Shown here: positions 7,162 through 26,089 of the stretch, piece after piece | Layout: each line of letters begins with the position of its first letter | Numbering within the stretch: position 1 is the first letter of the stretch | DNA from: Verrucomicrobiota bacterium | GTDB taxonomy: Bacteria > Verrucomicrobiota > Verrucomicrobiia > Limisphaerales > JADLHS01 | Assembly (NCBI GenBank): GCA_031384405.1 | Contig: JANNAO010000406.1 | Span: 9,759-73,758, forward strand | Length of the DNA stretch: 64,000 nt | Direction of reading: 5' to 3' | The notes under the pieces: generated by a model | What the model was told of the DNA's origin: nothing | The model's input: the letters and a program-made list of their open reading frames with translations, nothing else | Database searches by the model: none | Translations under genes and position numbers: made by a program

Positions 7162-9123
7162 TCATTTATAAGAGCGTGTGCTCATGTGGACTTCTTCATA
7201 CACGAGCGGCTCTTTGTTCAGGATCGGCGCTTTGTCCGGTGCTCCGGCATATTCCCAACCAGCGACATAAGCGAACGCATCATCGCGACGCTTCACATCG
7301 CCTGGATTCACGAGGCCCTGCTTGGTTTCGGGATCGTCGGGCGTGTACTGATATTCTTCGCGGAAATGGCCACCGCAACTCTCCTCGCGATGGAGTGCGT
7401 CGCGGCACATGAGTTCGCCGAGTTCGATGAAGTCCGCCACGCGACCGGCCTGTTCGAACGATTGATTCCAATCCGCCGCCTCGCCGGACACCATCACGTT
7501 CTTCGCATACTCCTCGCGCAATTCGCCGATGAGTTTGATTCCCTTTTCCAGCCCGGCCTTGGTACGCGCCATGCCGCAATGATCCCACATCAGTTTGCCA
7601 AGTTCCTTGTGGAAGCTCGCAGGCGTGCGCCTGCCTTGGTTGCCGAGCAATTGTTTGGTCAATGATTGAACATTTTCCTCGGCCTGTTTGAACGCCGCGT
7701 TGTCGGTGTTCGGACGCTTGTCAGGCTTCTGTGACGCGAGATAACCGCTGATCGTCGCTGGCAAAACAAAATAGCCGTCACTCAAGCCCTGCATCAGCGC
7801 GCTCGCGCCGAGGCGGTTCGCGCCGTGATCGGAGAAGTTCGCCTCGCCCAGCACGAATAGGCCGGGGACGTTGCTCATCAAATTGTAGTCCACCCACAGC
7901 CCGCCCATCGTGTAATGCACGGCGGGATAAATCCGCATCGGCGTTTTGTAGGCGTCTTCGTTCGTGATCTCTTGATACATCGCGAACAAGTTGCCGTAAC
8001 GCTCACGCACCTTGCTTTCGCCAAGCCGACCGATGGCGGCGGAAAAATCCAGATAAACGCCGAGTCCCGTTTCGCCAACGCCGCGACCCTCATCGCAAAC
8101 CGTCTTGGCCGCGCGGCTCGCGATGTCGCGGGGCGCGAGGTTGCCGAACGCGGAATACATCCGCTCCAGATAATAATCGCGATCCGCTTCGGGAATGTCC
8201 TGCGGCGGCTTCTTGCAATCCTCCTTCTTCTTCGGCGTCCACACGCGACCGTCGTTGCGAAGTGATTCGCTCATCAGCGTCAGCTTGGACTGATAATCGC
8301 CGCTGACCGGGATGCACGTCGGATGAATCTGCGTGTAGCACGGATTGCCGAAGCACGCGCCGCGTTTGTAAGCGCGCCAGCTCGCGGTGACGTTCGCCTG
8401 CCGCGCGTAAGTGGAGAGGTTATAGACATTGCCGTAACCACCGGTCGCCAGCACCACGGCATCCGCGCTGTGCTTGGTGATTTCACCGGTCTGGAGATTG
8501 CGGACGATGATGCCCTTCGCATGACCATCCACGACGACAAGATCGAGCATCTCGGAGTGCGTGTAAGATTTCACTGCGCCCGCGCCGATCATCTTGTTCA
8601 ACGCCGAATACGCACCGAGCAACAACTGCTGCCCCGTCTGCCCGCGCGCGTAGAACGTCCGCGAAACTTGCGCGCCGCCGAACGAGCGGTTGTCGAGCAA
8701 GCCGCCGTATTCGCGGGCGAACGGCACACCCTGCGCCGCACACTGGTCAATGATGTTGACCGAAACTTCAGCGAGGCGATGCACATTGGCTTCGCGGGCG
8801 CGGAAGTCGCCGCCTTTGATCGTGTCGTAAAATAAACGGTGAACCGAGTCGCCGTCGTTCTGATAATTCTTGGCAGCGTTGATACCGCCCTGCGCCGCGA
8901 CCGAGTGCGCGCGCCGGGGAGAATCATGGAACACGAAGTTATGAACTTCGTAACCCAGTTCCGCAAGCGTGGCGGAAGCGGATGATCCCGCGAGTCCGGC
9001 GCCGACGATGATGACCTTGTATTTCCGCTTGTTCGCCGGGTTGATGAGCTTGGTGTTGAACTTGTAGCTCTCCCACTTCGAAGCGAGCGGGCCGGACGGG
9101 ATGTTGGAATTCAGCGTGGCCAT
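7162..9123 (-). CDS. sdhA: succinate dehydrogenase/fumarate reductase flavoprotein subunit
   Basis: Start trimmed to the ATG at 9123 (MATLNSNIP...), 1 nt after the sdhC stop. It has the FAD dinucleotide fold [14 protein letters not shown], the covalent-FAD His region [15 protein letters not shown], and [10 protein letters not shown]. Confidence 0.95.
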
Positions 9124-9124
9124 G

Positions 9125-9901
9125 TTAGTGCGTCTCCTTTGCGGTCGGCGTAGCGGGCGCAGCAGATTCAACGATGGAATGTTTCACCTTCTCGGCGTAA
9201 TCCGCGCCGACGGCTCGTAGATAAATCGTCGCGGGAATCGCTGCGTAACCAATGAAGATCGCGATGCTTGCTCCTTTGGCGAACAACTGGATGCGCGGCC
9301 ACCAGACGTGATCGCGCAAGCCGAAGGATTGAAACATCGCTGCCAGCCCGTGACCGAGATGGATGAACAACAACCCTTGCGCGACGATGTAAAACGCCGC
9401 GACCCACCAGACTTGAAAGCCGAGAATCATGATGCCGTAAACGTCGCGAACCTCTTCGCCGTGGATCACGGTCTTGAGCTTGGAGAAATCGCCAACGCCG
9501 TTGATGCCCGGCAGCAGCGCAGTGAAATGTGCCAAGTGATAAACAATGAAAGCCGCAATGACCAAACCGCTGACGAGCATGTAGCGCGATTGCCAAGTTG
9601 AACCATACGGCTCGCTGTCGTGGTAGGCGACGGGACGAGCCGCGCGATTGGCCACGGCCAGTTGAATCGCCGACCAGATGTGCAAGCCGACGATGGCGAG
9701 CAATCCGATGCGCGAGCCCCAGACCATCGCGGGTTTGCTCTGGAGGAAGTGGGCGTAATTGTTGATGAGTTCGGGCGGGCCGAAGACTTGCAAGTTGCCG
9801 ACCAAGTGGCCGATGACGAACAAGAACAGCAGCGCGCCTGTCCCGGCCATGATGTATTTTTTGCCGAGAGACGAATTAAGGATGCCTGACACAATGCTCA
9901 T
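9125..9901 (-). CDS. sdhC: succinate dehydrogenase cytochrome b subunit (b558-type, single membrane anchor)
   Basis: Start trimmed to the ATG at 9901 ([37 protein letters not shown]). It has five predicted TM helices with conserved His residues. Its position at the head of sdhC-A-(ORF6N)-B fits the type-B enzyme layout. Confidence 0.8.
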
Positions 9902-10120
9902 GAAAAACGGTTGGGTTACGTGACGACTGAAACGCCTGCGACGGGGGAAGAAACTAGGGATTTGAAGCGGTGAACGCAATGACAGTTAGCCAGAATAAGC
10001 CTGTGCGTTGGGTGAAATGTAGCGCGCTAATCTCGTTGCCGTTCGGAAGTCCGGCAATTCACGGGCAAGGAGATGTTTTCGGCGGTTGAAACATGTACGG
10101 AAGGTCGCTAGCTTTGCTTT

Positions 10121-11269
10121 ATGAATCGGGTCGCCATCCAACCCAACTTGCTGCGCTGGGCTTGCGAGCGCGCAGGGTTTGATCGCGCTGATTTAGAACA
10201 CAAGTTTCCACATCTGGCCGCTTGGGAAAACCTCACCGAACAGCCGACGCTAAAGCAACTGGAAGCGTTCGCGAAAGCGACCTACACACCAGTTGGTTAT
10301 CTTTTTCTTCCCGAACCGCCAGTCGAAAAAATCCCAATTCCAGATTTCCGCGCTCCCGGCAATGAGCGCATTGGGCATCCATCTCCCGATTTGCTAGACA
10401 CAATCTATGTCTGCCAGCAACGGCAGGAGTGGTTTCGGAATTACGCGCGCTCCATGGGTGAACGACCACTGACGTTTGTGGGTTCGGCTCGCGTAAAGGA
10501 TGATGTTGTCTCAGCAGCAGCGCGCATCCGAACTGCACTTGGTTTTGACATGGATGAGCGCCGCCAGATTCCGACGTGGACGGATGCGTTGCGTCACTTC
10601 ATCGAACAGGCCGACGGCCTTGGAATTCTCGTGATGTGCAACGGAGTGGTGCATAACAACAACTATCGGCATCTGGACACAAAGGAGTTTCGCGGTTTTG
10701 CCATGGCGGATGATCTAGCGCCGCTGGTGTTCATTAACGGCGCGGACACGAAGGCAGCGCAAATGTTCACGCTGGCTCACGAGTTGGCGCACATCTGGTT
10801 GGGGCAATCTGCCGTCTCTGATTCCCAACCCGTCACGATACCGGTTGAGCAAGTGGAGCGTTGGTGCAACGAAGTTGCCGCTGAATTGCTCGTCCCGATT
10901 GAGTTGATGCGACGAGAATACAAGGATGACGCAACATTGGCAGAAGAAGTCAGCCGACTGGCCCGACGGTTCAAGGTCAGCACGCTTGTCATCTTACGCC
11001 GGATTCTTGACGTGGGTGGATTGAGCCAGCAGGAGTTTTGGGAAGCGTATCATGCAGAGGTGGACCGGCTGCGCGCGATTCCTCGCGGTTCTGGCGGTAA
11101 CTTTTATCTGACGCAAGCCGCCCGGGTCAGCAAACGCTTCGCGGCGGCACTGGTTACAAGCACACTAGAGGGGCAAACTCGCTACAACGATGCCTTCCGG
11201 ATGCTTGGGTTCTCGAAGCTTGCGACGTTCAAAGAATTGGGGCGCAGTCTGGGGGTGGGTGTCGCATGA
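10121..11269 (+). CDS. XRE-like HTH + ImmA/IrrE (COG2856) zinc metallopeptidase
   Basis: 382 aa with an N-terminal HTH-like region and an HExxH motif in FTLAHELAHIWLGQS. The overall pattern matches ImmA/IrrE-type antirepressor proteases. Confidence 0.8.
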   Translation: MNRVAIQPNLLRWACERAGFDRADLEHKFPHLAAWENLTEQPTLKQLEAFAKATYTPVGYLFLPEPPVEKIPIPDFRAPGNERIGHPSPDLLDTIYVCQQRQEWFRNYARSMGERPLTFVGSARVKDDVVSAAARIRTALGFDMDERRQIPTWTDALRHFIEQADGLGILVMCNGVVHNNNYRHLDTKEFRGFAMADDLAPLVFINGADTKAAQMFTLAHELAHIWLGQSAVSDSQPVTIPVEQVERWCNEVAAELLVPIELMRREYKDDATLAEEVSRLARRFKVSTLVILRRILDVGGLSQQEFWEAYHAEVDRLRAIPRGSGGNFYLTQAARVSKRFAAALVTSTLEGQTRYNDAFRMLGFSKLATFKELGRSLGVGVA

Positions 11270-11754
11270 GTTACCTTCTGGACTCCGACGTTTTTATTCA
11301 GGCCAAAAACCTCCATTACGGTTTGGATTTTTGCCCAGCCTTCTGGGATTGGCTGGTCGCTTCGAATGAGGCGGGGTTGGTTTTCAGCACAGAAAAGGTT
11401 GGAGATGAGATCGCGGCAGGCGCTGATGAACTTGCAGGGTGGGCTGCAAACCGAGGCGACGGTTTCTTTCTCAAACCAGACGCTGCCATCTTGCCCGCAC
11501 TTGCCACAGTGAGCAGTTGGGCAACCGGACAAAACTATGAACCCGCAGCAGTGAACACATTCTTGCAAGTGGCCGATTTTTATCTCGTGGCTCATGCGCT
11601 GGCTCATGGTCATGAGGTGGTGACACATGAGGTGGCGGCAGCTTCGACGAAAAAGATCAAGATTCCCAACGCTTGCATTGGAGTCGGCGTCAAGTGCGTA
11701 AGCCCTTATGAAATGTTGCGCCGTGAAAAGGCGCGGTTTGTCCTCGGTGCGTAG
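11266..11754 (+). CDS. DUF4411 family PIN-like nuclease (putative toxin partner)
   Basis: 162 aa. MSYLLDSDVFIQAKNLHYGLDFCPAFWDWL and the C-terminal KIKIPNACIGVGVKC are characteristic of DUF4411. It has an ATGA overlap (11266..11269) with the ImmA/IrrE gene. Confidence 0.75.
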   Translation: MSYLLDSDVFIQAKNLHYGLDFCPAFWDWLVASNEAGLVFSTEKVGDEIAAGADELAGWAANRGDGFFLKPDAAILPALATVSSWATGQNYEPAAVNTFLQVADFYLVAHALAHGHEVVTHEVAAASTKKIKIPNACIGVGVKCVSPYEMLRREKARFVLGA

Positions 11755-11773
11755 CCGCAATCATTTCACGCGT

Positions 11774-14413
11774 TCACTTCGCCGCCGCCGGTTTTGATTG
11801 TGGGCCTCCAACCCAATCTTGAAATCCTTTCCAACCAGATTTTGCGTAAACCATATCTGGCGCGGTGGGAATAAAATCTTCCGGTCTCTTCGGCAGATTG
11901 GAGAATTTGTTTACACAGTAATCCTTCCAAGAGCGTTGTCCGCCTCCCTGCGGACGTAAGCGCCAAAGTTCCAGCTTGTGAACCCATGCGCGAGATTGCT
12001 CGAAAGGCCACCAATCTTGCTTCTTTTCGTAGCCAAGAAAATCGGGCCAACTTACCCAATCGGGATAGTATTCATGTGGTCGAGAATGGATGATTTCAGG
12101 CCGCTTCCCTTTGCCTAGAAGCTTTCCAACACTATACGGCGTCCATTCGTTCGGACTCTTAAGGCCGAGCTTGCGGACGAAGGCACGAGCTTCTTCGTAG
12201 GTTAGATACGTTTTGCCGCCCGACCACTTTACTCCAGTGCCAAAGAATTCTCCCCATGTAGTCCAGCCCAGATTTCGATACGTCTCGTTAGGGCTGCTAG
12301 GATGATCTGCCAGCACTGGCGGCAGGTCTGGACGATCACCTCTGCGCCAGGCTCGCCATTGTTTCTGCGTTTTTAAGCCAAGTCGCTGCACAAGTGCCTG
12401 AGCTTCTGCATAACTTGTCGGCGCAAGTTGAGCCAGCTTACCCCATGCTTGGAGGCGGATAGATTGAACAAACTTCTCGGATTCAATTTTCACCGGCAGG
12501 ACTTCGGCAAAGTCAAAGTTCACGATTCGTTTTCCGTGCAGTGGTTTGCCGTGAGAAATGGAACGGAATTCTTCGATGATGCGTTCGTCGTTCGCTGCAA
12601 GCGCGCGAAGAACGAACATGACAAACTTGAAAGCGGAACTCTTTACGGCTTCGGAAAGACTGTCACCGTCCTTCACGACCATCGGAACGATGATGTGACC
12701 AAGCGTTTTATCTTCGGCGCGACGCAACGCGCGCCCTGCGGCCTGCACCACGTCAATCGTGCTGCCCTTGGGATCGCAGAACAGGACGCAATCAATACGT
12801 GGCACGTCCACACCTTCGGTCAGACATCGCGCGTTGGTCACAAGCGACGGCGTGGCAGCGCGAAACGCCAACAGTTCGCGATCACGTGCGCCAGTGGTCA
12901 TCTTCCCGGAAACATGGAACGAAGCGACCTGTGGCTGATTGGGGAACGCTTGATTGAACTGATCTGACAGCGTGCGAAAAGCTTTCGCCCGATCAATGCT
13001 GCTGTGAAACGAAACCGCGTGCCGGACGCCATGTTCTTGCACAGCCCTTCGCAATGCGATGAGGCTGGCAAAGGCTGCGGCAGCCACGTCGCTCCACTTA
13101 CCTTTGTCTGGCCGGACGAACGTGTTGGTTTCAACCAGCCGCCGAATTTCAGATTCCTTCACGCCTATGGTGAGCACTTGATAGTCGCTGAGAATCGGCG
13201 GCTGCGTCTCAATCGCCTCCTTGAACGTCAATAACTCGATGGTCTCGCCAAAGAGTTCCGGGTCATCCATCGAAACGATTTCATCCGAAGTGCCGGCGTA
13301 ACGCCGCTCTGTCGCCGTCATGAACAGGCGACGGCGAATGGGCAGGTTCTCGTCGTAGAGCAAATGCGCGAAGCCGCTGGATTTTCGGCCAGCCGTGCGG
13401 TGCGCTTCATCAAAGACACCGAAGTCGAAAGTGATTCCTGCCTCGCGAGCGGCGACCGCGAGCGGAGTTCCGCTTTGGTAGGTTGTGAAAATTACGCGCA
13501 GCGGCGATTTCATCGCGGCAAGATGCTCGCGAATCTTCTTCGGGTTAGTCTCGCAAGGAACGCCAAGGTCGTGAACGTGAACCAGCAACTCATCGCGTTC
13601 CGGTTTGCCAGCCGATTCATCGCTGCAAACACAAAGCCAGTCGGGGCGTACGCCATCAGCCACGGCCTCCGCGAGCCAAGTCGTGAGAGTCTGATTGATG
13701 AGTGCCAAACTCGGCACGGCGACGACAATGTGTTTTGCACCCAGCCGCCGAGCGAGCCAGTAAGCGGTGAGTGTTTTCCCGGACGCGCACGGGCTGATCA
13801 ACTTGCCTCGCGTCTGGTCTGGGTCGTTGAAGAAGGTCACGCCTTTTTCAAGTGCGCGCATTTGATGCGGCCAAGGTGTTGTTGGTGTGAGAACGCCCGG
13901 AGCTAGTTCCCGTCCTGAGCGCGCTGCCGCGAAGATGTCAGCCGACAGATGCTGCCAAGTTTCGGAAGTGCGGAAACCGATGCGAGAATTCCCTTCAAGC
14001 AAGTCAGTGACGCGGTCGGTGGTCGTGCAAATCAGGCCGAACGAAATGCCGCGACAAATCACGAACGCAAGGGACGTGAAAGTAGAAAGCTCACTGTGTG
14101 TCAGGGAGCTTTTGGAATCGGAACGATACTTCGCTTGAACCGCCCAAAACTCGCCCGTGAATGTTTTGGCAACAAGGTCAATCCCTTCGTCCGGGCCGGG
14201 GAGATTTAATTCCCTGTGAACTTCATCTGGAACTTCCGCGAGCAACCAGACTGTTTCGAGCAGGCTACGATAGGTTGGATGCGTTCGCAGAAGAGCTGCC
14301 ACGAGCAACTCGAAAGCATCACCCTTTTCCTTCCGCTCTCCGGGAAGAAGATTCATCGCAGCCGTGAATTCCGGCCACGCGTTTATGCCGTCGAAGGATT
14401 TTGCACTGGCCAC
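11774..14413 (-). CDS. Mrr-like PD-(D/E)xK nuclease + SF2 (DEAH) helicase with three C-terminal W-rich repeats
   Basis: 879 aa. N-terminal nuclease motifs are GDAFELLVAALL, DEGIDLVAK and AVQAKYR. Helicase motifs are I SPCASGKTLTAY, II FDEAHR, III FMTATE and VI QAAGRALRR. The last 214 aa (11777..12418) form three repeats of about 60 aa: (Y/F)E(E/Q)(A/S)xA(F/L/W)V..LGLK...W.....(R)P..(L/I)P..P...Y...GW..W..F(F/L)G. Confidence 0.8.
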   Translation of the reverse strand: MASAKSFDGINAWPEFTAAMNLLPGERKEKGDAFELLVAALLRTHPTYRSLLETVWLLAEVPDEVHRELNLPGPDEGIDLVAKTFTGEFWAVQAKYRSDSKSSLTHSELSTFTSLAFVICRGISFGLICTTTDRVTDLLEGNSRIGFRTSETWQHLSADIFAAARSGRELAPGVLTPTTPWPHQMRALEKGVTFFNDPDQTRGKLISPCASGKTLTAYWLARRLGAKHIVVAVPSLALINQTLTTWLAEAVADGVRPDWLCVCSDESAGKPERDELLVHVHDLGVPCETNPKKIREHLAAMKSPLRVIFTTYQSGTPLAVAAREAGITFDFGVFDEAHRTAGRKSSGFAHLLYDENLPIRRRLFMTATERRYAGTSDEIVSMDDPELFGETIELLTFKEAIETQPPILSDYQVLTIGVKESEIRRLVETNTFVRPDKGKWSDVAAAAFASLIALRRAVQEHGVRHAVSFHSSIDRAKAFRTLSDQFNQAFPNQPQVASFHVSGKMTTGARDRELLAFRAATPSLVTNARCLTEGVDVPRIDCVLFCDPKGSTIDVVQAAGRALRRAEDKTLGHIIVPMVVKDGDSLSEAVKSSAFKFVMFVLRALAANDERIIEEFRSISHGKPLHGKRIVNFDFAEVLPVKIESEKFVQSIRLQAWGKLAQLAPTSYAEAQALVQRLGLKTQKQWRAWRRGDRPDLPPVLADHPSSPNETYRNLGWTTWGEFFGTGVKWSGGKTYLTYEEARAFVRKLGLKSPNEWTPYSVGKLLGKGKRPEIIHSRPHEYYPDWVSWPDFLGYEKKQDWWPFEQSRAWVHKLELWRLRPQGGGQRSWKDYCVNKFSNLPKRPEDFIPTAPDMVYAKSGWKGFQDWVGGPQSKPAAAK

Positions 14414-14587
14414 GCTCAGAGAATAGAGATTCGCTGTTGGAAGTGGAGACGAAACTCGATGTGTCTCGATTCGTCACTTGGAGAAGTTGACCGCCTACCC
14501 AGCCCCTCCCGCAGTTGAAGGACTGCAAAAATCATTTCGACGATTTGCGAAGGTCAATCTATCGCTTCGGCGTTTGGGTCAATCTCA

Positions 14588-14722
14588 TTACGACTTCGAA
14601 CGCCAGTTTTTCACCAACTCAGGGAACGAGCAGCCGTCGCAGGTGGCGTTGGTGTGATCGCAGAAGTCGCGGACGATCTGGAGCAAGACTTTGTGTGTGG
14701 CGAGGAGTTCTGTGACACAGGA
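14588..14722 (-). pseudogene. remnant of a DUF2851-family gene (C-terminal ~40 codons only)
   Basis: A minus-strand frame is open only between the stop at 14725..14723 and the TAA at 14590..14588. It reads SCVTELLATHKVLLQIVRDFCDHTNATCDGCSFPELVKNWRSKS. This parallels the C-terminus of the intact DUF2851 ORF (QQGLLQIVRDFCDHSNSTCDACTFPELVKSWSPN, 37619..39073). By hand alignment, DNA at 14598..14687 is about 80 percent identical to 38959..39048. Confidence 0.75.
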
Positions 14723-14876: not shown

Positions 14877-16370
14877 TTATTTCGCAGCCGATGTCTTGCT
14901 AGCGATCTGGGCGGCGTCGGTGATGCCGAAGCGTTTGAGGATGCGATCCGTGGCTTCGCGCTCGGCATCGCCAGCGGCGAGTACGATGCGTTGGAGAGAT
15001 TCGTTGGGCACGAAGTCTATGATGTGAAAATCATCCTTGGGTTGCTTCAACGCGGCTTGCAATTCAGTCAAGCTAGTCACGCGCTGGCCGTTGACCTGGT
15101 TCACCACGAATGAACGAAACTCCTGATAGCCGATGTTGAATTTGTCCGGCAATACCTGCGAGAGAATCACGAGGGAGGGCTTGGCTTTCGTGGCTTCGTC
15201 GCTGCGATAATGATTCAGGCGGAATGGCGCGGTGCGTTCCCACTCGTTGCCCCAGCGTTGCAGATAGGGCGTCGTCAACGGTTGAAACACGAGTCCGCCC
15301 ACGATGAGATAATCCGGCGGTTGATCCCGAACCGCGATGGGAACGAGAGCGTTCTGGAAATCATACCCCGGCAAACGATACGTCACGTCGAGCGGTTTGC
15401 CGTCGCGCCAGAGTTTCATCTTCACGTCGTCACCCGCCCACTTGCCGCGCGTGGAGAGATTTTCCAGCGTGAGCGAACCAAACTCCGGATCGGTGTAATC
15501 GCCCTGCATGTCCACGTCGAATCCATCAATCTGCAAAATAATGTCGCGCGGCTTGAGGACGGAATCGCCGCCATCGAGACGTTCGGGGACGTTGATCACG
15601 AGTACGCCGCGCGGTTCGCCGGGAAGTTTGAGTTGCGCGAGCGAGGCGGTGTTTTCAGCGGGTTGCCAATAGAAATGGAAGTAGCCGAGCGCGCGTTGCT
15701 TGCCGGATTTGCGCGCTTCGAGAACCGAGCGGATGAACGACGCGGTGATGATGTTGCACGCGCGTCCGATCTGCGATGCGGTGATGCCCGCGATGCGCGA
15801 ATCCGTGACGACCGGCTCGCCGGACCCTGCGTCGCTGATCTCTGAATCCAATTCCATCTGCACATGGTTGATGGCGCTGCCGTCGCTTACATGAACGGAG
15901 TATTGGGTGAACTCGGCCTGGCGGTTTTCCAATTTGCCTTCGCGCCAGCGGACGATCTCCAACTCATCGCCTTCGCCGGGCGGTTTACCGGTCAAGTCGG
16001 CGGGACGAAGATCGCTCCAGAATGTCGCGTCGTCGGTGGTGAGCAGCGCGAGGTTGGCGTGATAATCAATCCACACGACGCTGGCGGTGGTCCATTTGCC
16101 GCGTCCGTTCTTTTGGAAACGCACGAGCGTCTGGTCGGACAGGTCTTGAGCTGTGGCGAGAATCTGGCGGTCTCCGACGACAAGTCCGGATTTCGCAGCG
16201 CGTTCGTTGCGGCGATTCCACGGTTGATAATAGTCGTAGGATTTTCGCGCGACTTCGATCTTTACGACGGATTTCTCCCAGGCGAATGAGGGCTTAGTGG
16301 AAGCACTTTCCGCCAATGCGGACAAGGGCGCGATCAACACCAGCACGGTAAGGAGGAAACAGTTTTTCAT
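14877..16370 (-). CDS. Deg/HtrA-type (S1C) protease homolog with PDZ region; catalytic His and Asp substituted (probable pseudoprotease)
   Basis: 497 aa with a signal peptide, paralogous along its length to the upstream ORF. Aligned catalytic positions read ATAQDL (versus TNAHVV), HANLALL (versus DSDLAIL) and AGSGEP (versus GNSGGP). ATGA overlap with the upstream gene. Confidence 0.75.
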   Translation of the reverse strand: MKNCFLLTVLVLIAPLSALAESASTKPSFAWEKSVVKIEVARKSYDYYQPWNRRNERAAKSGLVVGDRQILATAQDLSDQTLVRFQKNGRGKWTTASVVWIDYHANLALLTTDDATFWSDLRPADLTGKPPGEGDELEIVRWREGKLENRQAEFTQYSVHVSDGSAINHVQMELDSEISDAGSGEPVVTDSRIAGITASQIGRACNIITASFIRSVLEARKSGKQRALGYFHFYWQPAENTASLAQLKLPGEPRGVLVINVPERLDGGDSVLKPRDIILQIDGFDVDMQGDYTDPEFGSLTLENLSTRGKWAGDDVKMKLWRDGKPLDVTYRLPGYDFQNALVPIAVRDQPPDYLIVGGLVFQPLTTPYLQRWGNEWERTAPFRLNHYRSDEATKAKPSLVILSQVLPDKFNIGYQEFRSFVVNQVNGQRVTSLTELQAALKQPKDDFHIIDFVPNESLQRIVLAAGDAEREATDRILKRFGITDAAQIASKTSAAK

Positions 16371-17887
16371 AGGTGACGGTCTTTGGGGATGCCGTAGGTC
16401 TTGAGGATTTTGTCGTTGGCGCGAACCGCTTCCGCGTGGTCGAGAGTTTCAAACGCGCCGAGCTTGCCGAATTGGATCACGTCGTGCGCGTTCGTGCTGG
16501 TGGAGAATGCGCGGATGACGTCGGCAATCTTCTCGATGCGGATGCCGTTGATGCGATCCACCAACACACGTCCGCGAGTGATGAAGTTGGCGTTGACCGC
16601 ATCGGTCAAGACGCTGCTCAGGACGACGGGTTCGTCGCGGGCGAGTTCGGGTTCTTCGCGATTGCGGAAAAATAATTCGTAATTGAGTTCACCCGTTGAC
16701 GAATCAGAACCCTCACGCCCGGCGTCGCGCAAATAATCCAACGACAACGGCGTGAACACCAGCCCGCCAAAAACAAAATAGCGCGGCTGCACGTCGTATT
16801 GATTGCCCTCGCGCTGATCGTCCACGGCGGCTTCCACGGTCACTGTCACATCCTGCGCCTTGCCGTCACGCCAGAGTTGAACGGGAACGCTGTCGCCGCT
16901 CTGACCGAGTTGAAAACCCATCGCACAGAACACGCGATTGCCCAGGAACAGGATCGTCGCATCGCTCGCCACGGGAAACTCACCGATCTTCAGAATCACA
17001 TCGTCTGCGCGGAGGACATTATTTGTGCTGGTCCGCGAGCGGATGCGATCCACCCGCGCGCCGAGATTGTTGTCGGGCAATTTCAGCCGAGCGCGATACG
17101 CGGGATTTTGCAGCGATGTGATGCCGGCACCAGCCAGCGGCACGCCATCGTAACGTTTGTCTTCGATGTCTTTGAGGAAGCGATTGATGACTTGTGGCGG
17201 AATGAAAAAGCCCGCGCCCTCTAACGATTTGATGCCTTGAAACGCCACGCCCACCACGCGGTCGTCTTGCAGCACAGGCCCGCCGCTGTTGCCGGGATTG
17301 ATCGCCGCATCCGTCTGCACGGAGAGTAAACGGCGATTGCCGATGTGCGAGTAAGGGCTGAGTTCGATCCTCGAAACGACGCCGCGCGTGTAGGAGATTT
17401 CTTCGCCGCCCGCCGGGTAACCGTACGTGATGACTGCGGAACGGACTTTGGGTAATTCACCGAATTCAAGAGCGGGCAGATCATTGAAAAAACTTTCATC
17501 CTCGACGGTGAGAATGGCGAGATCGGAATCGTGCGCGATGTATTCGACCTGAGCAAGGTAGGGTTTCGCGTCCTGATACTTCCGCACGATGATCTGTCGC
17601 GCCCAACCGACGACATGGGCGTTGGTCATGATGCGTTTGCCCCGGATGACGAAGCCTGAGCCGCCGGAGCGTTGCACGGCATCAAACCGCCACGGCGCAG
17701 ACCAATCGGGCGACTGGCGGAACGTTTGGATCTGGATGACTGAACGTTCGGGTTCGATGGCGAGACAAGTCCCCGCGACTAGAAACGCGAGGCAGGCAGA
17801 GATTAATTTCAGGAACACGCCGGGCAAAGTGAAAGTTTGGCGCGAAATGGTCAAGGGATTATCCGGGCTATTGCGCTTGGAATACAT
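16367..17887 (-). CDS. Deg/HtrA-type S1C serine protease with PDZ region (intact triad)
   Basis: 506 aa with an N-terminal TM/signal segment. The triad is intact: His in MTNAHVV, Asp in HDSDLAILTV, Ser in NPGNSGGPV. Confidence 0.85.
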   Translation of the reverse strand: MYSKRNSPDNPLTISRQTFTLPGVFLKLISACLAFLVAGTCLAIEPERSVIQIQTFRQSPDWSAPWRFDAVQRSGGSGFVIRGKRIMTNAHVVGWARQIIVRKYQDAKPYLAQVEYIAHDSDLAILTVEDESFFNDLPALEFGELPKVRSAVITYGYPAGGEEISYTRGVVSRIELSPYSHIGNRRLLSVQTDAAINPGNSGGPVLQDDRVVGVAFQGIKSLEGAGFFIPPQVINRFLKDIEDKRYDGVPLAGAGITSLQNPAYRARLKLPDNNLGARVDRIRSRTSTNNVLRADDVILKIGEFPVASDATILFLGNRVFCAMGFQLGQSGDSVPVQLWRDGKAQDVTVTVEAAVDDQREGNQYDVQPRYFVFGGLVFTPLSLDYLRDAGREGSDSSTGELNYELFFRNREEPELARDEPVVLSSVLTDAVNANFITRGRVLVDRINGIRIEKIADVIRAFSTSTNAHDVIQFGKLGAFETLDHAEAVRANDKILKTYGIPKDRHL

Positions 17888-17997
17888 GTTTGTGCAGGGA
17901 GAATCCCGTTGACCGGTTGGAATGGCAGGCTATAACCGTAGGCAATCCGGGCTATCCGCCGTTTGTTGGCACTCAGAAGACCGGAGAAAAAAACCTT

Positions 17998-18714
17998 ATG
18001 AAACGATTTGTATCACTCGCACTGGCTGTGTTCACGCTGACAGCCGCCACATCCCAAGCACAAGTGTTGACCACACTTTATACGGTCAATTCGAACGCCA
18101 ATGACATTGTGATGTTTGATTTGCAGGTGCTAAGTCCCGGCGGCATCTCGATCACGCGATTCGACGTGAACTGCAATACGCTTGGGTTGGGCAGCAGCGT
18201 TCTCGACGGGCTTTCGAACGGATCGCCGCAGGTCTTGTCCATCTATTTGCGGAATGGGAGTTTTGTGGGAATGAACAACGTCGCGAATTGGACATTCAAT
18301 CAAAACGTGGGATTCACAGCGGCTCAGGAAGGAACTCCGTCTGCGGTGACGCTCGGGTCTAGCATCACTTTGGCGCCGGGCAATTACGCCTTCGCTCTTG
18401 GAATGGTTGATTTGCCTGCCACCACGGGCTCCGGCCTTTCATTCAACAACGGCAATGGAACACTCGCCACGCCGGGTTCAGGATCGAACCAGACTTACGC
18501 CAATGCGGACATCACGCTGCTGGCGGGTGGGTCTGTTGGCAACTACAGCGGCGTGCCCGGCTCTGGAACGGAGATATTTGGTAATTTTGCCGGTGGCCCC
18601 CGCGTGTTCAACGGCTCGATTTATTACAACGTCATTCCTGAGCCGACCGCGTTTGCGATGACCGGGCTTGGATTGCTGGCATTGGCACGGGTCAAATCAG
18701 TCCGTCGTCGGTGA
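17998..18714 (+). CDS. PEP-CTERM sorting-domain secreted protein
   Basis: Start trimmed to the ATG at 17998 (MKRFVSLALAVFTLTAATSQAQV, signal peptide). The C-terminus VIPEPTAFAMTGLGLLALARVKSVRRR has the PEP motif, a TM helix and a basic tail. Confidence 0.85.
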   Translation: MKRFVSLALAVFTLTAATSQAQVLTTLYTVNSNANDIVMFDLQVLSPGGISITRFDVNCNTLGLGSSVLDGLSNGSPQVLSIYLRNGSFVGMNNVANWTFNQNVGFTAAQEGTPSAVTLGSSITLAPGNYAFALGMVDLPATTGSGLSFNNGNGTLATPGSGSNQTYANADITLLAGGSVGNYSGVPGSGTEIFGNFAGGPRVFNGSIYYNVIPEPTAFAMTGLGLLALARVKSVRRR

Positions 18715-18736
18715 TATGAGCGAAGCCTTGGTTTTG

Positions 18737-18765
18737 AAACGCCCGGGCAACCGGGCGTTTTTTTG
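18737..18765 (+). terminator. rho-independent terminator after the PEP-CTERM gene
   Basis: aaacgcccgg-gcaa-ccgggcgttt followed by a T-run. 10-bp stem, 22 nt after the stop codon. Confidence 0.8.
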
Positions 18766-18910
18766 TAGCCGCGAGTTTTACAGCATGTTTATGGCATGGG
18801 CATGTCCGGCAGAATACTTGACGGCCTAATCGAGCCGAGTAGGGTTTCTCAACAAAAAATTCAAAACATTAGGTATCGCAGCCATCCGTCCAGTCCCCGT
18901 TAAGATATTT

Positions 18911-20380
18911 ATGAAAACAAGGCCGTCTTTTTCGTCATTTCTCGCAGCGTTAGTATTGGGTTTCATGTTGGGTTGCAATAACGCCTCGTCACAGTCGGTG
19001 ACGAAGGTGTTGGATATGAATTGGGTTGCTGGCGGTGGGGGTGGATCGTTCGGACCCAAAGGAAGACTTGTTCCTGTGGGCACAAACTACTGGTTTCTAA
19101 CTGAAAATGGCGGGGTGTTTGGTTTTGGAGGTGCATTCTCTTTTGATCCCAGTGCTAATACTCAAACAGAGATTTCCAGCTTCGGGCTAGACGGAAATAG
19201 TCCATACGGTTCAATCGCCATTGCCGATGGTAAAGCTTGGTTCACAACGACGCGAGGAGGTGCGGGAGACAAGGGAACATTATCCTACTTTGATACCAAT
19301 TCTCCGGGTGCGCCAACTTCAGCATTCAGTTTTCCGAACAATAACAATGCTCCAGGACAGGCAAACTGCGGTGATTCTCCCCGATGCACTCCTTTACTCA
19401 TCGGGAACGACCTTTGGATGCTTTCTTCTTTGGGCGGCAGCAACAGCGGGGGCGCGCTGATAAAGTATAACATGACCAACGGAGTTATGACTTCTGTTCA
19501 CCACTTCTCGCTTGCTGGCGGGCGGGTTCCATTCGGCAGTCTAGTCAAACAAGGCGACGCATACTATTTCACAACACACGAAGGTGGCACGAACGTCGGC
19601 AGTGGATTTCCGAATGGGGCTGGCACTCTGAGTCGGCTGACATTTGATGGACTGGGGAATCCGGTTATCACAAAGCTCATTGATATGCCAGTTGGCAACA
19701 CTGGTTTTCCAGATGGAGACGTTTGTCCGGTAGGAACGAATCAGTTGTATTTCGTCGCAAATGGTAATACTGCCAACCCGGGAAGTCTGATCCGTTATGA
19801 CATCGCCAGCAACACGTGGAGCAACATGTTCTCGTTTTCATCTGCTACAAAAACGAATCTGGGCGCGAGTCCGAATGCGGCGACACCTGTTCTCGTAGAA
19901 GGAAATCTGTATTTTGCGACCATGAATGGTGGGCGAAGTGATCGCGGAGCTTTGCTGAAATATAGCATCGCAGATAACACGATGACGAAGATTGCTGATT
20001 TCATCGGGGGAGGTAATGCGGAATCGTTGGGAAGCAGGCCTCAGTATCAAAGCGGCACCTACGTTCCTGGCACGAACAATTGCGATAAGAAAATTTATAT
20101 GTTCACGTTCAGAGGCGGTGCGAACGGCCCTGTAAACACCGGAAACGGGACGCTTATTTCGATAAATCTTGGCCAACCGGTGATGTCTGTTTCCAATTCT
20201 TCATTTGCGACGAAGACGCTTGCTTGGAGGGGTGGTTACTCGCCGTTTGCCGTTCAAAGCACCACGAATATTGTCTCTCCTGTGTGGGTCAATGAAGCCA
20301 CAGGTTTGACGACCAACTCAATCACCATCAATCCAACAAACTCGCAGAAGTTCTATCGCGTATCGGCTTCTTGCCAATGA
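18911..20380 (+). CDS. lipoprotein with about seven GG-rich blade-like repeats (probable beta-propeller; GloVer-like repeat)
   Basis: Lipobox in [24 protein letters not shown]. Seven repeats have the pattern P.G.L...G..(W/Y)F.T..GG....G(A/T)L..(Y/F)(D/N), for example [22 protein letters not shown] and [23 protein letters not shown]. The C-terminal domain ends in KFYRV. Confidence 0.7.
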
Positions 20381-21009
20381 AACGAAGCACGGCAACCTAC
20401 TCGGAAATCAAACGCTTTGGCTTAGTGCGGGCGTTCACGTTGATTGAGCTTTTGGTTGTCATCGCGATCATCGCCATATTGGCCGCCATGCTTTTGCCTG
20501 CCTTGGCCAAAGCAAAAGACAAAGCAAGGAAGACACAATGCGTTTCAAACCTCCGACAGATCGTTTTGGGCATTCACCTGTACATTGATGACAATAATAA
20601 CAGGCTGCCATCGCCACAGATGATTGGTTACTCCAGTTATCGCCTGGCTCGTGATCCGATGAGTTTATGCACTTTTCTTAACACTTATGTCAACGCGAGC
20701 AACCGAGTTTGGTTGTGTCCATCAGGCAGACCTTTGTTAGAATCCAATCTGGTCAATTATACTTGGACACGTAGTGCGAATATCATGGGAAACTTAAACA
20801 AGCAGTTTCAAGCTATCGCCTCGACTGACGAGATAGCGGTTATGAATGACAATCACAGCTTCACGCTGCCATCAGTTTACAACGTGAGTGAAGCAACCAA
20901 TGGTGGCCCGAGAATTCCCCCAGGTGGCGATAAATGGTACCCGCACGATAACAAGAAGAAGGTAAGTTACCTTTATCTTGGTGGTCATGTGAAAACCGTA
21001 CCTCCATGA
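20371..21009 (+). CDS. prepilin-type N-terminal cleavage/methylation domain protein (pseudopilin-like, H-X9-DG-type family)
   Basis: [45 protein letters not shown] is the classical type IV pilin-like N-terminus. The C-terminal end [11 protein letters not shown] resembles that of the DUF1559/H-X9-DG family. It overlaps the upstream ORF by 10 nt. Confidence 0.8.
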
Positions 21010-21052
21010 GCGAGAGAGTCTGCGTCTTCCGGGTTAGAACATTTTTAGAGAC

Positions 21053-22645
21053 CTAATCCGTCTTCGCTGTCTCCAGCGGCAGTTCCGGCAGTCTCACGCG
21101 CGATCTCGTATCCGTCAGCGTCTCCAAGAAGGCTTTCAAATCCGCGATGTCGTGCTCGTTCAGGCCAAGCTCTTTCAGCAGCGGACTCTTCGTCGGGAAC
21201 AGCGGATCGTTCGCCTGATTCGGGCGACGTTTGATGTTGGGCATCCCGCCGTTATACATGTCCAAAATGGTTTCCAGATCGAACATCCCGTGGTGCATGT
21301 AAGGCGCGGTGCGCGTCACGTTCCGCAAAGACGGCGTTTTGAACCGACCCACATCCTCCACTTTCTTCGTCGCGTCATAACGCCCCAAGTCCTGACCTTT
21401 GCGACCATAATTGTTCAGGCTGTTGTTGTGAAAACGATTGTCGCTGAACAACGGCCCCATGTGGCAATTGATGCAACGCCCCGTCGTGCGAAAAATATGC
21501 AACCCGCGAACGGCTGCATCCGTGATGATCTCAGACTCGCCGCGCGCGAACAGGTCGAACTGATTGCGCTTGCTCGTCACCGTGCGTTCAAACGTGGCGA
21601 TGGCTTTGGCCACGTTTTGAATCGTCGGATCGGATGAACCGAACACTTTGGCGAAGTCATTCGTGTAGCCGGTGATTTTCGCGAGACGCTCGCGGACGCC
21701 TTCGGGCGTGTTGCGCATTTCGTCTTCGTTGAGCAAAACATCTCGCGCCTGTTCTTCGAGAGTCGTGGAGCGTCCGTCCCAGAACAAAGGTTTGATCATG
21801 CCCGCGTTCAGGATGGATGGCGTATTGCGTTTGAGTTCCTTGCGCGAATGACCAAAAGCTAAAGTGCGTCCGTCGGCCCAGCCCAAATCTGGTTCGTGAC
21901 AACTGGTGCAGGACATCTCACCCGTGCCGCTCAATCGCGGATCGAAGAACAGCTTCTTGCCGAGTTCAGCTTTGGCGTCGGTGTAAGGATTTTCCGCCGG
22001 GTGCGGGATGTTGGGCAACACGCCGATCTCTTGAAAGTGGGGTTTCACCGAGTCATCAATTTCCGGCGCGGGCCATTGAGAAGCTGGCTTGGAATACGCG
22101 GCGCGCAATTCCGCAGCGAGCTTCTTGTATTCATCGTCGGTAAGAGTCGCGCGCGGTTTCTTTTTCTTGGACGTGGCTTCCAGTTCCTCCTCGCTCAACG
22201 CTCGCGACGTTGTCTCCGCTGCGCCCGCCGCTTCGCCATCCGAGCTTTTCTTTGTTGAGCGCAAGGCTTTCAATTCAGCCTTCTGCTCCTTGGTGAGCAA
22301 CTGCTCGATGCCTTTGTTCGCTGCGCGCAGTGCGAACGTGGAATTCACGCGGGCGTTGTAGAGCGCGTCTGGCGGCGTGTTGCTGGTGATTTCCAATTTG
22401 CTGACCACAGCGCGTGCTGCGTCGAGTTTCGCGCGCAGTGCTGCAACGGACGTCTTCTGCTCTTGCGTGAGCTTCATTTCCGCCAAGTGATCCCAGATGG
22501 TTTTGTTTGCAGGAATGGAACTCGATTTGGTGACGGCTGAATTCGTCTGCGCGAGTGAACTGGTTTGCAATGACGCGAGCGAAGTCAGGGCCAAAGCGAG
22601 CGCGATTGTGGTCTTGCGGCGGAACGACGGGATTAGGCTATTCAT
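21053..22645 (-). CDS. di-heme cytochrome c peroxidase (CCP/MauG family) with a ~190-aa N-terminal LTxxQ-motif extension
   Basis: Two CxxCH motifs (CTSCHEP, CINCHMG) sit in a CCP-like C-terminal ~340 aa. The signal peptide is followed by KLTQEQKTSVAALRAKL and LLTKEQKAELKALR (CpxP/Spy-like LTxxQ motifs). Confidence 0.85.
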   Translation of the reverse strand: MNSLIPSFRRKTTIALALALTSLASLQTSSLAQTNSAVTKSSSIPANKTIWDHLAEMKLTQEQKTSVAALRAKLDAARAVVSKLEITSNTPPDALYNARVNSTFALRAANKGIEQLLTKEQKAELKALRSTKKSSDGEAAGAAETTSRALSEEELEATSKKKKPRATLTDDEYKKLAAELRAAYSKPASQWPAPEIDDSVKPHFQEIGVLPNIPHPAENPYTDAKAELGKKLFFDPRLSGTGEMSCTSCHEPDLGWADGRTLAFGHSRKELKRNTPSILNAGMIKPLFWDGRSTTLEEQARDVLLNEDEMRNTPEGVRERLAKITGYTNDFAKVFGSSDPTIQNVAKAIATFERTVTSKRNQFDLFARGESEIITDAAVRGLHIFRTTGRCINCHMGPLFSDNRFHNNSLNNYGRKGQDLGRYDATKKVEDVGRFKTPSLRNVTRTAPYMHHGMFDLETILDMYNGGMPNIKRRPNQANDPLFPTKSPLLKELGLNEHDIADLKAFLETLTDTRSRVRLPELPLETAKTD

Positions 22646-22805
22646 GGGAACAGTTGGTCAATGTTGAGGGAATACTATTGAGCCATTCCATTGATACAAA
22701 ATAAATCCCAGTGCCCATCATACATGTTCGTGCCAGGGATCGCTTTGGGATTTGAGTTCAACTTCTGGATGCGTTTCATATCAGTGCCATGCTCAGATGG
22801 GTGTT

Positions 22806-23183
22806 TCACTCCAACCCGCGATCAAACAGATCGTCTTCATCCAAGCCAAGGTAATGGCCGAGTTCGTGAAGATAAGTGGTGTGGACTTCCTCCAGGAAAA
22901 ATTCCTCGTCGCCTTCAGTGAAGTCCCAGAGGTTTTCCAGATACAAAATGATCTGCGGCGGCACCGGTGATGCGCTGTGGTCTTCTTCGCCAAACGCCGG
23001 GCCTGTGAACAATCCGAGTGAATCCGCTTCGATGCCTTCGGCGACAAAGCTCGCGTTCGGCTTCGGCTCGAAGGTGACCGGCAAGCGAGCGGCGCGTTCG
23101 CGTAGAGGCGCGGGCAACTCCGCCAGAGTGGCGTCCACTTCGGCGAGAGCGAGTTTTGTCAGATGTTCCCAGTGTGTTGACAT
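22806..23183 (-). CDS. small zincin-like metallopeptidase family protein (COG3824-type)
   Basis: Start trimmed to the ATG at 23183 (MSTHWEHL...). The C-terminus reads TTYLHELGHYLGLDEDDLFDRGLE (HExxH followed by an acidic tail). Confidence 0.7.
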   Translation of the reverse strand: MSTHWEHLTKLALAEVDATLAELPAPLRERAARLPVTFEPKPNASFVAEGIEADSLGLFTGPAFGEEDHSASPVPPQIILYLENLWDFTEGDEEFFLEEVHTTYLHELGHYLGLDEDDLFDRGLE

Positions 23184-23192
23184 GTTGCTTGA

Positions 23193-23314
23193 GGAGCGCG
23201 GCTGCGTTCGTGAGAACCAGCCGCAGCGCGTTGAAAATTTACGGTCACAGTGAATTCGCACACCGCCGTGTGACCATACTGCTGCGGCTGGTTTTCAACA
23301 CAGCCGCGCTCCGG
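23193..23314. repeat. inverted-repeat-bounded intergenic element (~122 bp, MITE/REP-like)
   Basis: The left arm ggagcgcggctgcgttcgtgagaaccagccgcagcg and the right arm ctgctgcggctggttttcaacacagccgcgctccgg are imperfect reverse complements. An inner 7-bp hairpin ggtcaca/tgtgacc lies between them. Confidence 0.6.
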
Positions 23315-23367
23315 CTGATTTGGATTTTGTTCTTTGAACGCGCGCGAGCCGTCCCTACCTTGGCCGC

Positions 23368-24054: not shown

Positions 24055-24066
24055 GCTCATTCAATT

Positions 24067-24924: not shown

Positions 24925-24930
24925 AGTGTC

Positions 24931-25611: not shown

Positions 25612-25620
25612 GTGCGCTCG

Positions 25621-25779
25621 ATGAAAACCGAAATCAAATCTGATGAAAGCCTGACGTGTGAGGAGTGCGGATGTTTCGGCGCGATAGATTTCGGTGGTCA
25701 AACAATCTGCGCCGACTGTTACGGAACGAAATGCTCGTGCTGCCCGGAGTTCGGGCGCGAAAAGGCCGAGGAGGATTGA
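25621..25779 (+). CDS. 52-aa Cys-rich (zinc-ribbon-like) small protein
   Basis: Hand-translated as MKTEIKSDESLTCEECGCFGAIDFGGQTICADCYGTKCSCCPEFGREKAEED, with 8 Cys including CxxC pairs. It starts 9 nt after the LysE stop and ends 3 nt before the next ATG. It is below the ORF-track length cutoff. Confidence 0.5.
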   Translation: MKTEIKSDESLTCEECGCFGAIDFGGQTICADCYGTKCSCCPEFGREKAEED

Positions 25780-25782
25780 ACC

Positions 25783-25983: not shown

Positions 25984-25993
25984 GAAGGAGTGT

Positions 25994-26089
25994 GGCCGTC
26001 CTCGGCCTCAGCAATGTCCAAACGCCCACGCGCCTAGAGTTTTCAGAAGTCTCTCGCACAATCACGCTGCTGCGCCCGAGGACGGGCGC
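25994..26089. repeat. pair of small GC hairpins between convergent genes
   Basis: ggccg-tcct-cggcc (25994..26007) and gcgccc-gaggac-gggcgc (26072..26089) share the complementary core ccgtcctcgg/ccgaggacgg. They lie between the DUF3185 gene and ade, so they could act as a bidirectional terminator. Confidence 0.5.

Follow-up and report, generated by a model that had tools for sequence, protein, structure and literature searches.

A toxin-antitoxin pair of the VapBC52 kind and a Type ISP-related nuclease-helicase in a Verrucomicrobiota islet: probably two neighbouring defence-type modules from a gyrB/parE locus

Three genes form a small islet at positions 10076-14541 of a 64,000-nt stretch of contig JANNAO010000406.1 from a Verrucomicrobiota bacterium (the whole stretch is referred to as the window), between a putative sdhC gene and a rearranged junction marked by a DUF2851 remnant. 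Two of the genes encode an antitoxin of 382 aa and a toxin of 162 aa, and they converge on a third which encodes a nuclease-motor protein of 879 aa. The islet is probably made up of two autonomous defence-type modules that were moved together from a hotspot at a gyrB/parE gene; as far as the sequences can be read, they are best seen as independent neighbours with a common locus history and not as one machine. Two modules are preferred to one because the pair is missing from all 80 metagenomic loci of the helicase family that were sampled, because it occurs by itself in many contexts, and because at one related locus (L142; loci used for comparison carry the prefix L) the helicase gene has decayed beside an intact pair. 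The original prediction, made from the letters of the window, had described a small defence islet whose combination of genes fits no named system. All three genes are indeed of defence-associated types, although they are not demonstrably one system. The claim that no named system applies holds for the helicase, which lacks the methyltransferase and target recognition domain (TRD) of Type ISP enzymes, but not for the pair, which can be assigned to the VapBC52 kind. The prediction had also named membership of already described systems as grounds for giving it up, and for the pair, a VapBC52 homologue, such membership was found. The three open reading frames lie where the prediction put them; the antitoxin and toxin genes share the ATGA at 11266-11269 (in 'gcATGAgt'), and 19 nt (11755-11773) separate the toxin gene from the convergent helicase gene. 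The features of the islet are as follows.

10076-10120, plus strand: leader 5' of the antitoxin gene, 45 nt before the ATG, inside the nucleotide homology to L154
10121-11269, plus strand: antitoxin gene, 382 aa
11266-11754, plus strand: toxin gene, 162 aa
11774-14413, minus strand: nuclease-helicase gene, 879 aa
13919-14413, minus strand: Mrr-family PD-QxK nuclease domain, aa 1-165 (Mrr_cat_2 at residues 44-137)
12536-13918, minus strand: superfamily 2 (SF2) helicase-like motor, aa 166-626 (ResIII and Helicase_C)
11801-12421, minus strand: three INT_rpt (integrase repeat) units, aa 665-728, 736-796 and 801-871, each about 60-70 residues, which align to each other
14507-14541, plus strand: scrap of a gyrB/parE (type IIA topoisomerase B-subunit) gene, 35 nt

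The antitoxin-toxin pair

The two proteins match two chains of one solved complex, PDB entry 9vzy, and the pair was assigned to the VapBC52 kind on this account. Residues 6-345 of the antitoxin align with residues 2-356 of chain 9vzy_A, named 'HTH cro/C1-type domain-containing protein' (phmmer, E 1.1e-16; HTH, helix-turn-helix), and the toxin matches 9vzy_D, named 'DUF4411 family protein', and also 9vzz (E 9e-5). The complex is Mycobacterium tuberculosis VapBC52 (Rv2515c/Rv2514c), described in a 2026 NAR paper by Singh et al. (PMC13273310). According to that paper VapC52 is a PIN-domain tRNase which cuts the anticodon or variable loop, and VapB52 consists of an N-terminal domain that resembles an HTH, a HEXXH peptidase like IrrE/CapP and a C-terminal toxin-occluding domain, in a 1:2 complex. 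Self-cleavage of VapB52 at an 'FR' motif is switched on by single-stranded DNA (ssDNA), and the system has been linked to intracellular growth and stress (PMC13273310).

The 382-aa protein had been predicted to combine an HTH with an HExxH peptidase. The peptidase is plain, with HELAH at 220-224 and a Pfam Peptidase_M78 match over residues 165-295 (1.4e-17), but no Pfam HTH model matched the N-terminus significantly, even when sub-sequences were used, and the HTH is taken from the homologue 9vzy_A. The zinc-ligand residues H220/E221/H224 and E246 are conserved in the alignment to VapB52, and D75-F76-R77 falls at its self-cleavage motif, on the boundary of the N-terminal and middle domains (PMC13273310). 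The toxin matches Pfam DUF4411 over its full length (159/159 profile positions, 1.4e-52), and in the alignment its E48, D104 and E122 stand opposite acidic residues of VapC52; D6 lies upstream of the aligned region and was placed by position alone, where it corresponds to the residue mutated in VapC52(D6A) (PMC13273310). The likeness thus takes in two genes with the antitoxin first, a DUF4411 PIN toxin of about 160 aa, an antitoxin of about 380-415 aa with an HTH-like part and an IrrE/CapP-like HEXXH peptidase, the Phe-Arg motif and the zinc ligands (His, His, Glu). Synonymous sites are near saturation, with dN/dS (the ratio of non-synonymous to synonymous divergence) of 0.05-0.06 for the antitoxin and 0.02-0.04 for the toxin. 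By sequence, then, the pair is homologous to VapBC52 over its full length, though distantly, and is of a kind already described.

It is also a Rosmer-like member of the long-predicted class in which COG2856-Xre fusions are combined with PIN toxins. That class of toxin-antitoxin (TA) systems was predicted in PMC2701414, PMC5499597 explicitly foresaw a DUF4411.1 toxin encoded downstream of an HTH-DUF955 fusion, and ImmA antitoxins and the Rosmer zone of the TA network are treated in PMC10440598. The pair shares with RosmerTA (RmrT/RmrA) and with this class (Makarova 2009; Matelska 2017; Ernits 2023) an antitoxin made of an HTH and an ImmA-type zinc peptidase, coupled to a swappable toxin. Unlike RosmerTA itself, however, the antitoxin matches the PADLOC RmrA profiles weakly (4.4e-14 at best, down to 4e-4, mostly over the peptidase core), and the toxin matches no PADLOC family, RmrT included, so that the adjacent RmrA and RmrT by which PADLOC defines RosmerTA are not both present. 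The antitoxin also weakly matches capP (6.1e-16, on the peptidase core), but its neighbours are DUF4411 and the helicase, and no genes of CBASS (anti-phage signalling systems based on cyclic oligonucleotides) are in the window's list of open reading frames (ORFs), which places the pair outside CapH/CapP-CBASS.

The nuclease-motor protein

The 879-aa protein was correctly foreseen as an Mrr-like nuclease joined to a DEAH helicase: Mrr_cat_2, ResIII and Helicase_C were all matched in Pfam, with E-values of 1.2e-14, 1.8e-10 and 3.1e-10, respectively. Residues 27-626 align with residues 30-662 of the Type ISP enzyme LlaBIII (4xqk, E 2.5e-56), and LlaGI is matched as well (5ffj, 3.5e-42). The homology to LlaBIII stops at its residue 662 of 1578, and in the same way the PADLOC profile REase_MTase_IIG is matched at 5.9e-86 over positions 19-644 of 1646 only. 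Matches to mREase_IV were marginal (E 2.6e-3 and 3.4e-3). The nuclease of LlaGI and LlaBIII has the catalytic residues D74, D78 and K94 together with Q92, and their motor has K210 (PMC3553963); for the PD-QxK motif see PMC3874165. Residues E35, D75, D79, Q93 and K95 of the window protein correspond to E38, D74, D78, Q92 and K94 of LlaBIII, and all five are invariant in 23 family members. So are the Walker A lysine K213, which by its GKT motif is equivalent to K210 of the LlaGI/LlaBIII motor, the DEAH box at 335-338, TAT at 366-368 and motif VI (Q557, G560, R561, R564). Translation probably starts at the GTG at 14413, since W13, which lies upstream of the ATG chosen in one database entry, is invariant in the 23 homologues.

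Searches with Pfam, NCBIfam and PADLOC found no methyltransferase domain in the 879-aa protein, and no TRD could be detected, the C-terminus being occupied by the three INT_rpt units. From its sequence the protein is therefore taken to be the nuclease and motor half of a Type ISP enzyme without the methyltransferase or TRD. The family runs to more than 3000 matches, and thousands of homologues are likewise without a methyltransferase and carry INT_rpt arrays. Literature searches on 'integrase repeat' with helicase, on PF14882 and on PF13156 found no paper describing this helicase family, and a large family which appears to keep the nuclease and motor of Type ISP enzymes, and to have a variable repeat array in place of the methyltransferase-TRD half, is so far as these searches go undescribed. 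With Type ISP enzymes such as LlaBIII and LlaGI the window protein shares the Mrr PD-QxK nuclease and SF2 translocase over about 600 residues, with the two Asp, the Q-x-K and the Walker A Lys kept. It differs in having neither the gamma-methyltransferase (N6-adenine class) nor the TRD, in the repeats that follow the motor, and in its length (879 aa against about 1400-1650 aa). Host-protective modification would thus be impossible for this protein by itself.

These data bear directly on the idea that the gene is merely the decaying remains of a Type ISP restriction-modification (R-M) gene, now non-functional after loss of its methyltransferase half. The match to the PADLOC Type IIG/ISP profile, which takes in no more than roughly its first 40%, would fit such decay, as would the truncated copy of 214-221 aa at L142. 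Against it, dN/dS is 0.08-0.10 for the whole protein and 0.05-0.14 over all domains, the catalytic residues are all invariant in 23 diverged members, and thousands of homologues have the same methyltransferase-less INT_rpt architecture. A decayed pseudogene is very improbable, and is essentially refuted by this conservation.

The repeat array

Repeat 2 aligns with stretches of the homologues P0011 and P0033 which Pfam calls INT_rpt (PF14882), and members of the family carry 2-7 copies. A model of the C-terminus made with AlphaFold 2 (ma64938d75477; predicted local-distance score, pLDDT, 81) consists of small helical units. Foldseek found no match to this model in the PDB. In BFVD the array matches predicted SF2 helicases of giant viruses (Klosneuvirus, Marseillevirus, Bodo saltans virus, Terrestrivirus) with probabilities of 0.92-0.99.

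The array has a different history from the rest of the gene. Nucleotide identity to L154, a locus with the same three genes, is 93-98% over the pair and mostly 82-94% over the nuclease and motor (73% at the extreme N-terminus), but 57-68% over the INT_rpt region. At the protein level the motor is 95% identical (synonymous divergence, dS, 0.41), and the repeat region is 63% identical with dS saturated. The comparison indicates a hypervariable repeat module that appears to be swapped by recombination, in the manner of R-M specificity domains. Mainly because the repeat region is mosaic in this way, we propose that the INT_rpt array may be the DNA-recognition module, ie the part that selects the target.

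Origin at a gyrB/parE locus

The same three genes occur at L005-7 and at L154/155 with a convergent spacing of 11 nt, compared to 19 nt in the window. The antitoxin, toxin and helicase of L154 are 98%, 99% and 85% identical to those of the window, and nucleotide homology (87%) extends over 10076-14386. At L142 the helicase is cut down to 214-221 aa while the pair is intact. At all of these loci (L005-7, L142, L154/155) the genes come directly downstream of gyrB/parE, with a duplicated 3' fragment of gyrB/parE on the far side of the helicase. The window retains a trace of this arrangement. Its 35-nt scrap at 14507-14541 is identical at 35/35 positions to L005 25-59 and to L142 8408-8442, and at 32/35 positions to a stretch inside the intact gyrB/parE of L142 (5094-5128). 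Because of this scrap, and because the homology to L154 begins 45 nt before the antitoxin gene, we conclude that the unit at 10076-14541 was moved or transferred from a gyrB/parE locus. The gyrB/parE site appears to be an insertion hotspot at which the 3' end of the target is duplicated.

The duplicate of the gyrB/parE 3' part at these loci has diverged, with 72-81% amino-acid identity (L142 3881-9214, L005 1-210 and 4707-5213, and the ends of L154). The 35-nt block had been considered as a recombinase site or a small gene; this was dropped once it was recognised as a conserved gyrB/parE stretch, and an exact-match scan of viral contigs was empty.

Composition and local signals add little. The islet has a GC content of 0.51-0.58, no different from its flanks, and the 64-kb window contains no tRNA gene. 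Searches for att-like repeats flanking the islet gave short matches at chance level, to which no integration mechanism can be assigned. A consensus scan was uninformative for promoters (0 against 2.0 expected) and terminators (7 against 7.4 expected), and no sigma-70-like promoter was found in the antitoxin leader.

Distribution of the two modules

Homologues of the pair are numerous. In Verrucomicrobiota metagenomes the 120 clusters listed for each protein, out of about 8000 matches each, show identities of 80-97% to the window's antitoxin and of 83-94% to its toxin, and their lengths are nearly fixed at about 382 aa and 160-166 aa. Constant gene lengths and the 4-nt overlap are kept across Verrucomicrobiota, Alpha- and Gammaproteobacteria and Actinobacteria, and on alphaproteobacterial plasmids the DUF4411 toxin is 70-72% identical. 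At least 10 contexts, including L010-25 and L143-153, have the pair but not the helicase, and the pair is alone in 6 of the 7 plasmid contexts. On conjugative plasmids it is found inside clusters of other TA modules, near ssb. At L143-146 the pair is beside a cyclase gene, and the pair, together with other cargo, there fills the space that separates the genes for topoisomerase subunits B and A.

Two Type I R-M operons carry the pair between hsdS and hsdR (L140 2385-10593, and L149, NZ_CP043507.1, 2453-11924). The operons are barely related (HsdM 26% and HsdR 21% identity) while the pairs are 54-70% identical, which argues that the pair was inserted into them independently. In L149 an Abi-family gene (abortive infection) lies in the same gap, alongside the pair. 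The position inside Type I operons hints at a role as a restriction back-up. On a Dietzia plasmid (L139, NZ_CP046569.1, 4747-11792) HTH and PIN genes directly precede a Type ISP-like gene (1642 aa, annotated as 'DEAD/DEAH box helicase') and a restriction endonuclease gene, with TIR and HIT genes nearby, so that a TA pair again adjoins a Type ISP-like enzyme.

The helicase family was sampled at 80 metagenomic loci and three more, 83 in all, and the pair was present at 0 of the 80. The helicase is without the pair at L003, L004, L008 and L058, of which L003, L004 and L058 hold some of the closest helicases. When 304 neighbouring proteins were clustered all against all, no recurrent family emerged apart from Sel1 repeats. 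There was no conserved adjacent methyltransferase among the 25 commonest Pfam families, with 120 immediate neighbours and 83 loci covered; a methyltransferase that is not linked is still possible. Scattered neighbours are of mobile-element or defence types, with resolvases, transposases, HigB, GmrSD and AAA_15 in Pfam, and PDC-M19B, PtuA, PD-Lambda-1 and HEC-06/09 in PADLOC. The closest annotated relatives on plasmids are called 'type ISP restriction/modification enzyme' or 'DEAD/DEAH box helicase' and are often in defence-island settings. We conclude that the helicase is a stand-alone gene.

Two of the helicase loci have neighbours of some interest in themselves. At L058 a 78%-identical helicase has right upstream of it a gene (8938-9756) that matches the PADLOC candidate family PDC-M19B over its full length (E 1.6e-108). 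At L003 (8842-14164) the helicase homologue, with 85% amino-acid identity like that of L154, belongs to what resembles an integrative and conjugative element (ICE), with a split HTH_19 and Peptidase_M78 pair upstream, and a serine recombinase and a gene like those for type IV secretion system coupling proteins downstream. The HTH_19 and Peptidase_M78 genes were examined as relatives of the window pair and rejected; no similarity was seen at E 1e-2, and they look like the ImmR/ImmA regulator of the ICE-like element.

One system or two

If the modules act separately, each would have a simple mode of action. By analogy with VapBC52, the antitoxin would keep the DUF4411 PIN toxin inactive until ssDNA, generated when DNA is damaged or a phage replicates, turned on its peptidase. 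The peptidase would then remove the antitoxin's own N-terminal domain at the Phe-Arg site, and the freed toxin would cut tRNAs and stop growth, with abortive infection or stabilisation of the element as the outcome. In the 879-aa protein the INT_rpt array would bind the target, after which the motor would translocate and the nuclease would cut the foreign DNA. Self-DNA would be spared if the target were a foreign modification or a DNA structure, as in Type IV logic, and not by methylation of the host.

Several findings weigh against this account of two independent defence modules, and we set them out together. VapBC52 is a remote relative (antitoxin E 1e-16, toxin E 9e-5), identity is low, the host belongs to another phylum and the window pair is known from sequence alone. 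The cysteine-switch loop, which in VapB52 blocks the peptidase site until ssDNA is bound, is gone, its 'GLCD' (C229) standing opposite a 4-residue gap with no Cys nearby. The last 37 residues of the antitoxin lie outside the alignment to 9vzy_A and have no Pfam match, and the toxin-occluding domain of VapB52 is 59 residues long. Protection from phage by VapBC52 was seen when the toxin was over-expressed alone, not with the native pair (PMC13273310). For the helicase, the Pfam INT_rpt match to the window protein itself is not significant (E 4.7), the assignment coming from its homologues; target recognition by the array and the Type IV-like distinction of self from non-self are pure conjecture, and a nuclease-translocase with no modification partner could serve in repair or in the functions of mobile elements. 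Lastly, the trio has been kept with its convergent spacing of 11-19 nt in four lineages at near-saturated synonymous divergence, which is somewhat against full independence.

This last point is the start of the case for one coupled system, in which the pair would be a back-up or guard of the Type ISP-like enzyme, as PrrC is in EcoprrI. ssDNA or DNA fragments from the translocating nuclease, or interference by a phage, would provoke self-cleavage of the antitoxin and hence cleavage of tRNA. That the window, L005-7 and L154/155 all show the same convergent layout, and L142 a decayed form of it, in spite of dS of about 1.5 or more, is what such coupling would lead one to expect. So are the independent insertions between hsdS and hsdR, the HTH and PIN genes directly upstream of the Type ISP-like gene of the Dietzia plasmid, and ssDNA as the trigger of VapB52. 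But every copy of the trio is at the gyrB/parE locus, so that common descent is able to explain the linkage, and the hsdS-hsdR gap may be a general insertion hotspot, given the Abi gene in L149. The closest helicases manage without the pair, no locus of the 80 has it, and the pair persists intact beside a truncated helicase or a cyclase gene. On balance we regard coupling as unlikely.

A wider form of the same thought is that ImmA-DUF4411 pairs are portable 'restriction guards', repeatedly recruited beside ATP-dependent translocating restriction enzymes (inside unrelated Type I operons, and convergent to the Type ISP-like enzyme of the window), where the ssDNA-sensing peptidase would read restriction activity or its failure and free the tRNase as a second, abortive defence. 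The partner here would belong to a very large, undescribed family of Type ISP derivatives without a methyltransferase, in which the swappable INT_rpt array would be a DNA-recognition module of a new kind, shared with the helicases of giant viruses. We offer this as speculation, and think it improbable.

It is also doubtful that neither module is primarily directed at phage, the pair being an addiction or stress TA system that stabilises the DNA around it and the helicase-nuclease working in DNA repair, in recombination or in mobile-element maintenance. The pairs of conjugative plasmids in TA clusters near ssb would suit such roles, as would the link of VapBC52 to intracellular growth and stress, with a phage effect that needed over-expression of the toxin. 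The recombinases, transposases and ICE-like element near the helicases, and the want of a modification partner, point the same way. On the other hand, the only characterised homologues of the helicase are restriction enzymes, its C-terminal module is hypervariable and recombining as is typical of specificity domains in an arms race, its neighbours include PDC-M19B, PtuA, PD-Lambda-1, HEC-06/09, GmrSD and HigB, and the pair is embedded in R-M operons. Two independent defence-type modules with a common locus history thus remain the probable reading.

Parallels in known systems

SauUSI, a Type IV enzyme, has in a single chain a nuclease, an ATP-dependent motor and a C-terminal DNA-recognition module, with no methyltransferase, and so follows the same overall logic as is proposed for the 879-aa protein. 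Its nuclease is of the phospholipase D (PLD) type and not Mrr, and the recognition domains differ too. PrrC is an anticodon nuclease reportedly encoded inside the EcoprrI Type I R-M locus (Levitz 1990; Kaufmann 2000), at a position between hsdS and hsdR, where relatives of the pair lie in L140 and L149. The parallel would be a tRNA-cleaving suicide nuclease encoded within or next to the locus of a translocating restriction enzyme. There is no homology between PrrC and the window toxin, however, and the latter has its own antitoxin-sensor, with no evidence of control by a restriction enzyme.

As judged from sequence the pair is ordinary and the 879-aa enzyme moderately interesting. The pair carries the VapBC52 kind into Verrucomicrobiota and onto plasmids of proteobacteria and actinobacteria, and as a natural variant without the cysteine switch it bears on how ssDNA sensing is gated. 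Its recurring, independent placement in restriction loci gives a handle on TA modules as restriction back-ups. If the 879-aa protein does restrict DNA, it raises the question of how a translocating nuclease without a methylase tells self from non-self.

The right flank and its rearrangement

Two further features lie outside the islet.

14597-14702, minus strand: remnant of a DUF2851 C-terminus, about 35 codons and two stop codons
38944-39043, plus strand: the matching copy, from the 3' end of DUF2851 in its intact form (37619-39073), at what is probably the other end of an inverted segment

The original prediction had noticed this remnant and taken it for the scar of an insertion or recombination. 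The remnant is real and not a chance likeness: 14603-14702 on the minus strand is 85% identical to 38944-39043 over 100 nt (E 2.6e-27), with 73% identity over 33 aa at the protein level (E 4.9e-12), and the gene at 37619-39073 is DUF2851 as stated (Pfam 9.4e-64). It does mark a rearrangement junction, but the scar takes in more than this remnant: the 35-nt gyrB/parE scrap is a further piece, and the remnant coincides with an inversion of about 24 kb relative to the closest relatives.

The accessory nature of the three genes was upheld by comparison with 32 related Verrucomicrobiota loci that have the protease genes Deg2-Deg1, a check which the prediction had proposed. The islet is missing beside Deg2-Deg1 in 32/32, neither sdh nor DUF2851 is adjacent in any of them, and each of the two modules turns up in many unrelated settings. 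In L026 and L027, the two closest relatives (Deg1 84-85% identical), Deg1 is followed directly by a homologue of the window gene at 39129-39782. In the window that gene comes just after the intact DUF2851, and homology to L027 resumes at 39084, 11 nt past the DUF2851 stop. At least 14880-27852 of the window is inverted relative to L026 and L027, and the inversion breakpoint that is demonstrated is the junction of Deg1 with the gene at 39129. The inverted copies of the DUF2851 3' end suggest that the other end of the segment lies there, which would make it about 24 kb long (14.7-39.1 kb). An exact-protein look-up of Deg1, for near-identical strains without the islet, returned no record.

Other observations

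A second variable spot is found beside the protease pair. L027 lacks a counterpart to about 4.9 kb of the window (17890-22800), a part that includes a PEP-CTERM-type protein (17890-18714) as well as three more ORFs; in L027 the homologue of the window at about 22.8 kb abuts Deg2. Several of the loci with Deg1 homologues of 62-85% identity (L026, L028, L032, L038, L055) have the GTDB titles 'Akkermansia muciniphila' or 'uncultured Bifidobacterium sp.' although the other records with such homologues are clearly verrucomicrobial metagenome-assembled genomes; the titles look mislabelled. Finally, L140 (165-2359) and L142 (9317-11514) share a 75-aa HTH protein (93% identical between the loci) and a TPR protein of about 655 aa (84%), with PLD-domain and SNF2 helicase genes, and this set may be another conserved defence-type module.

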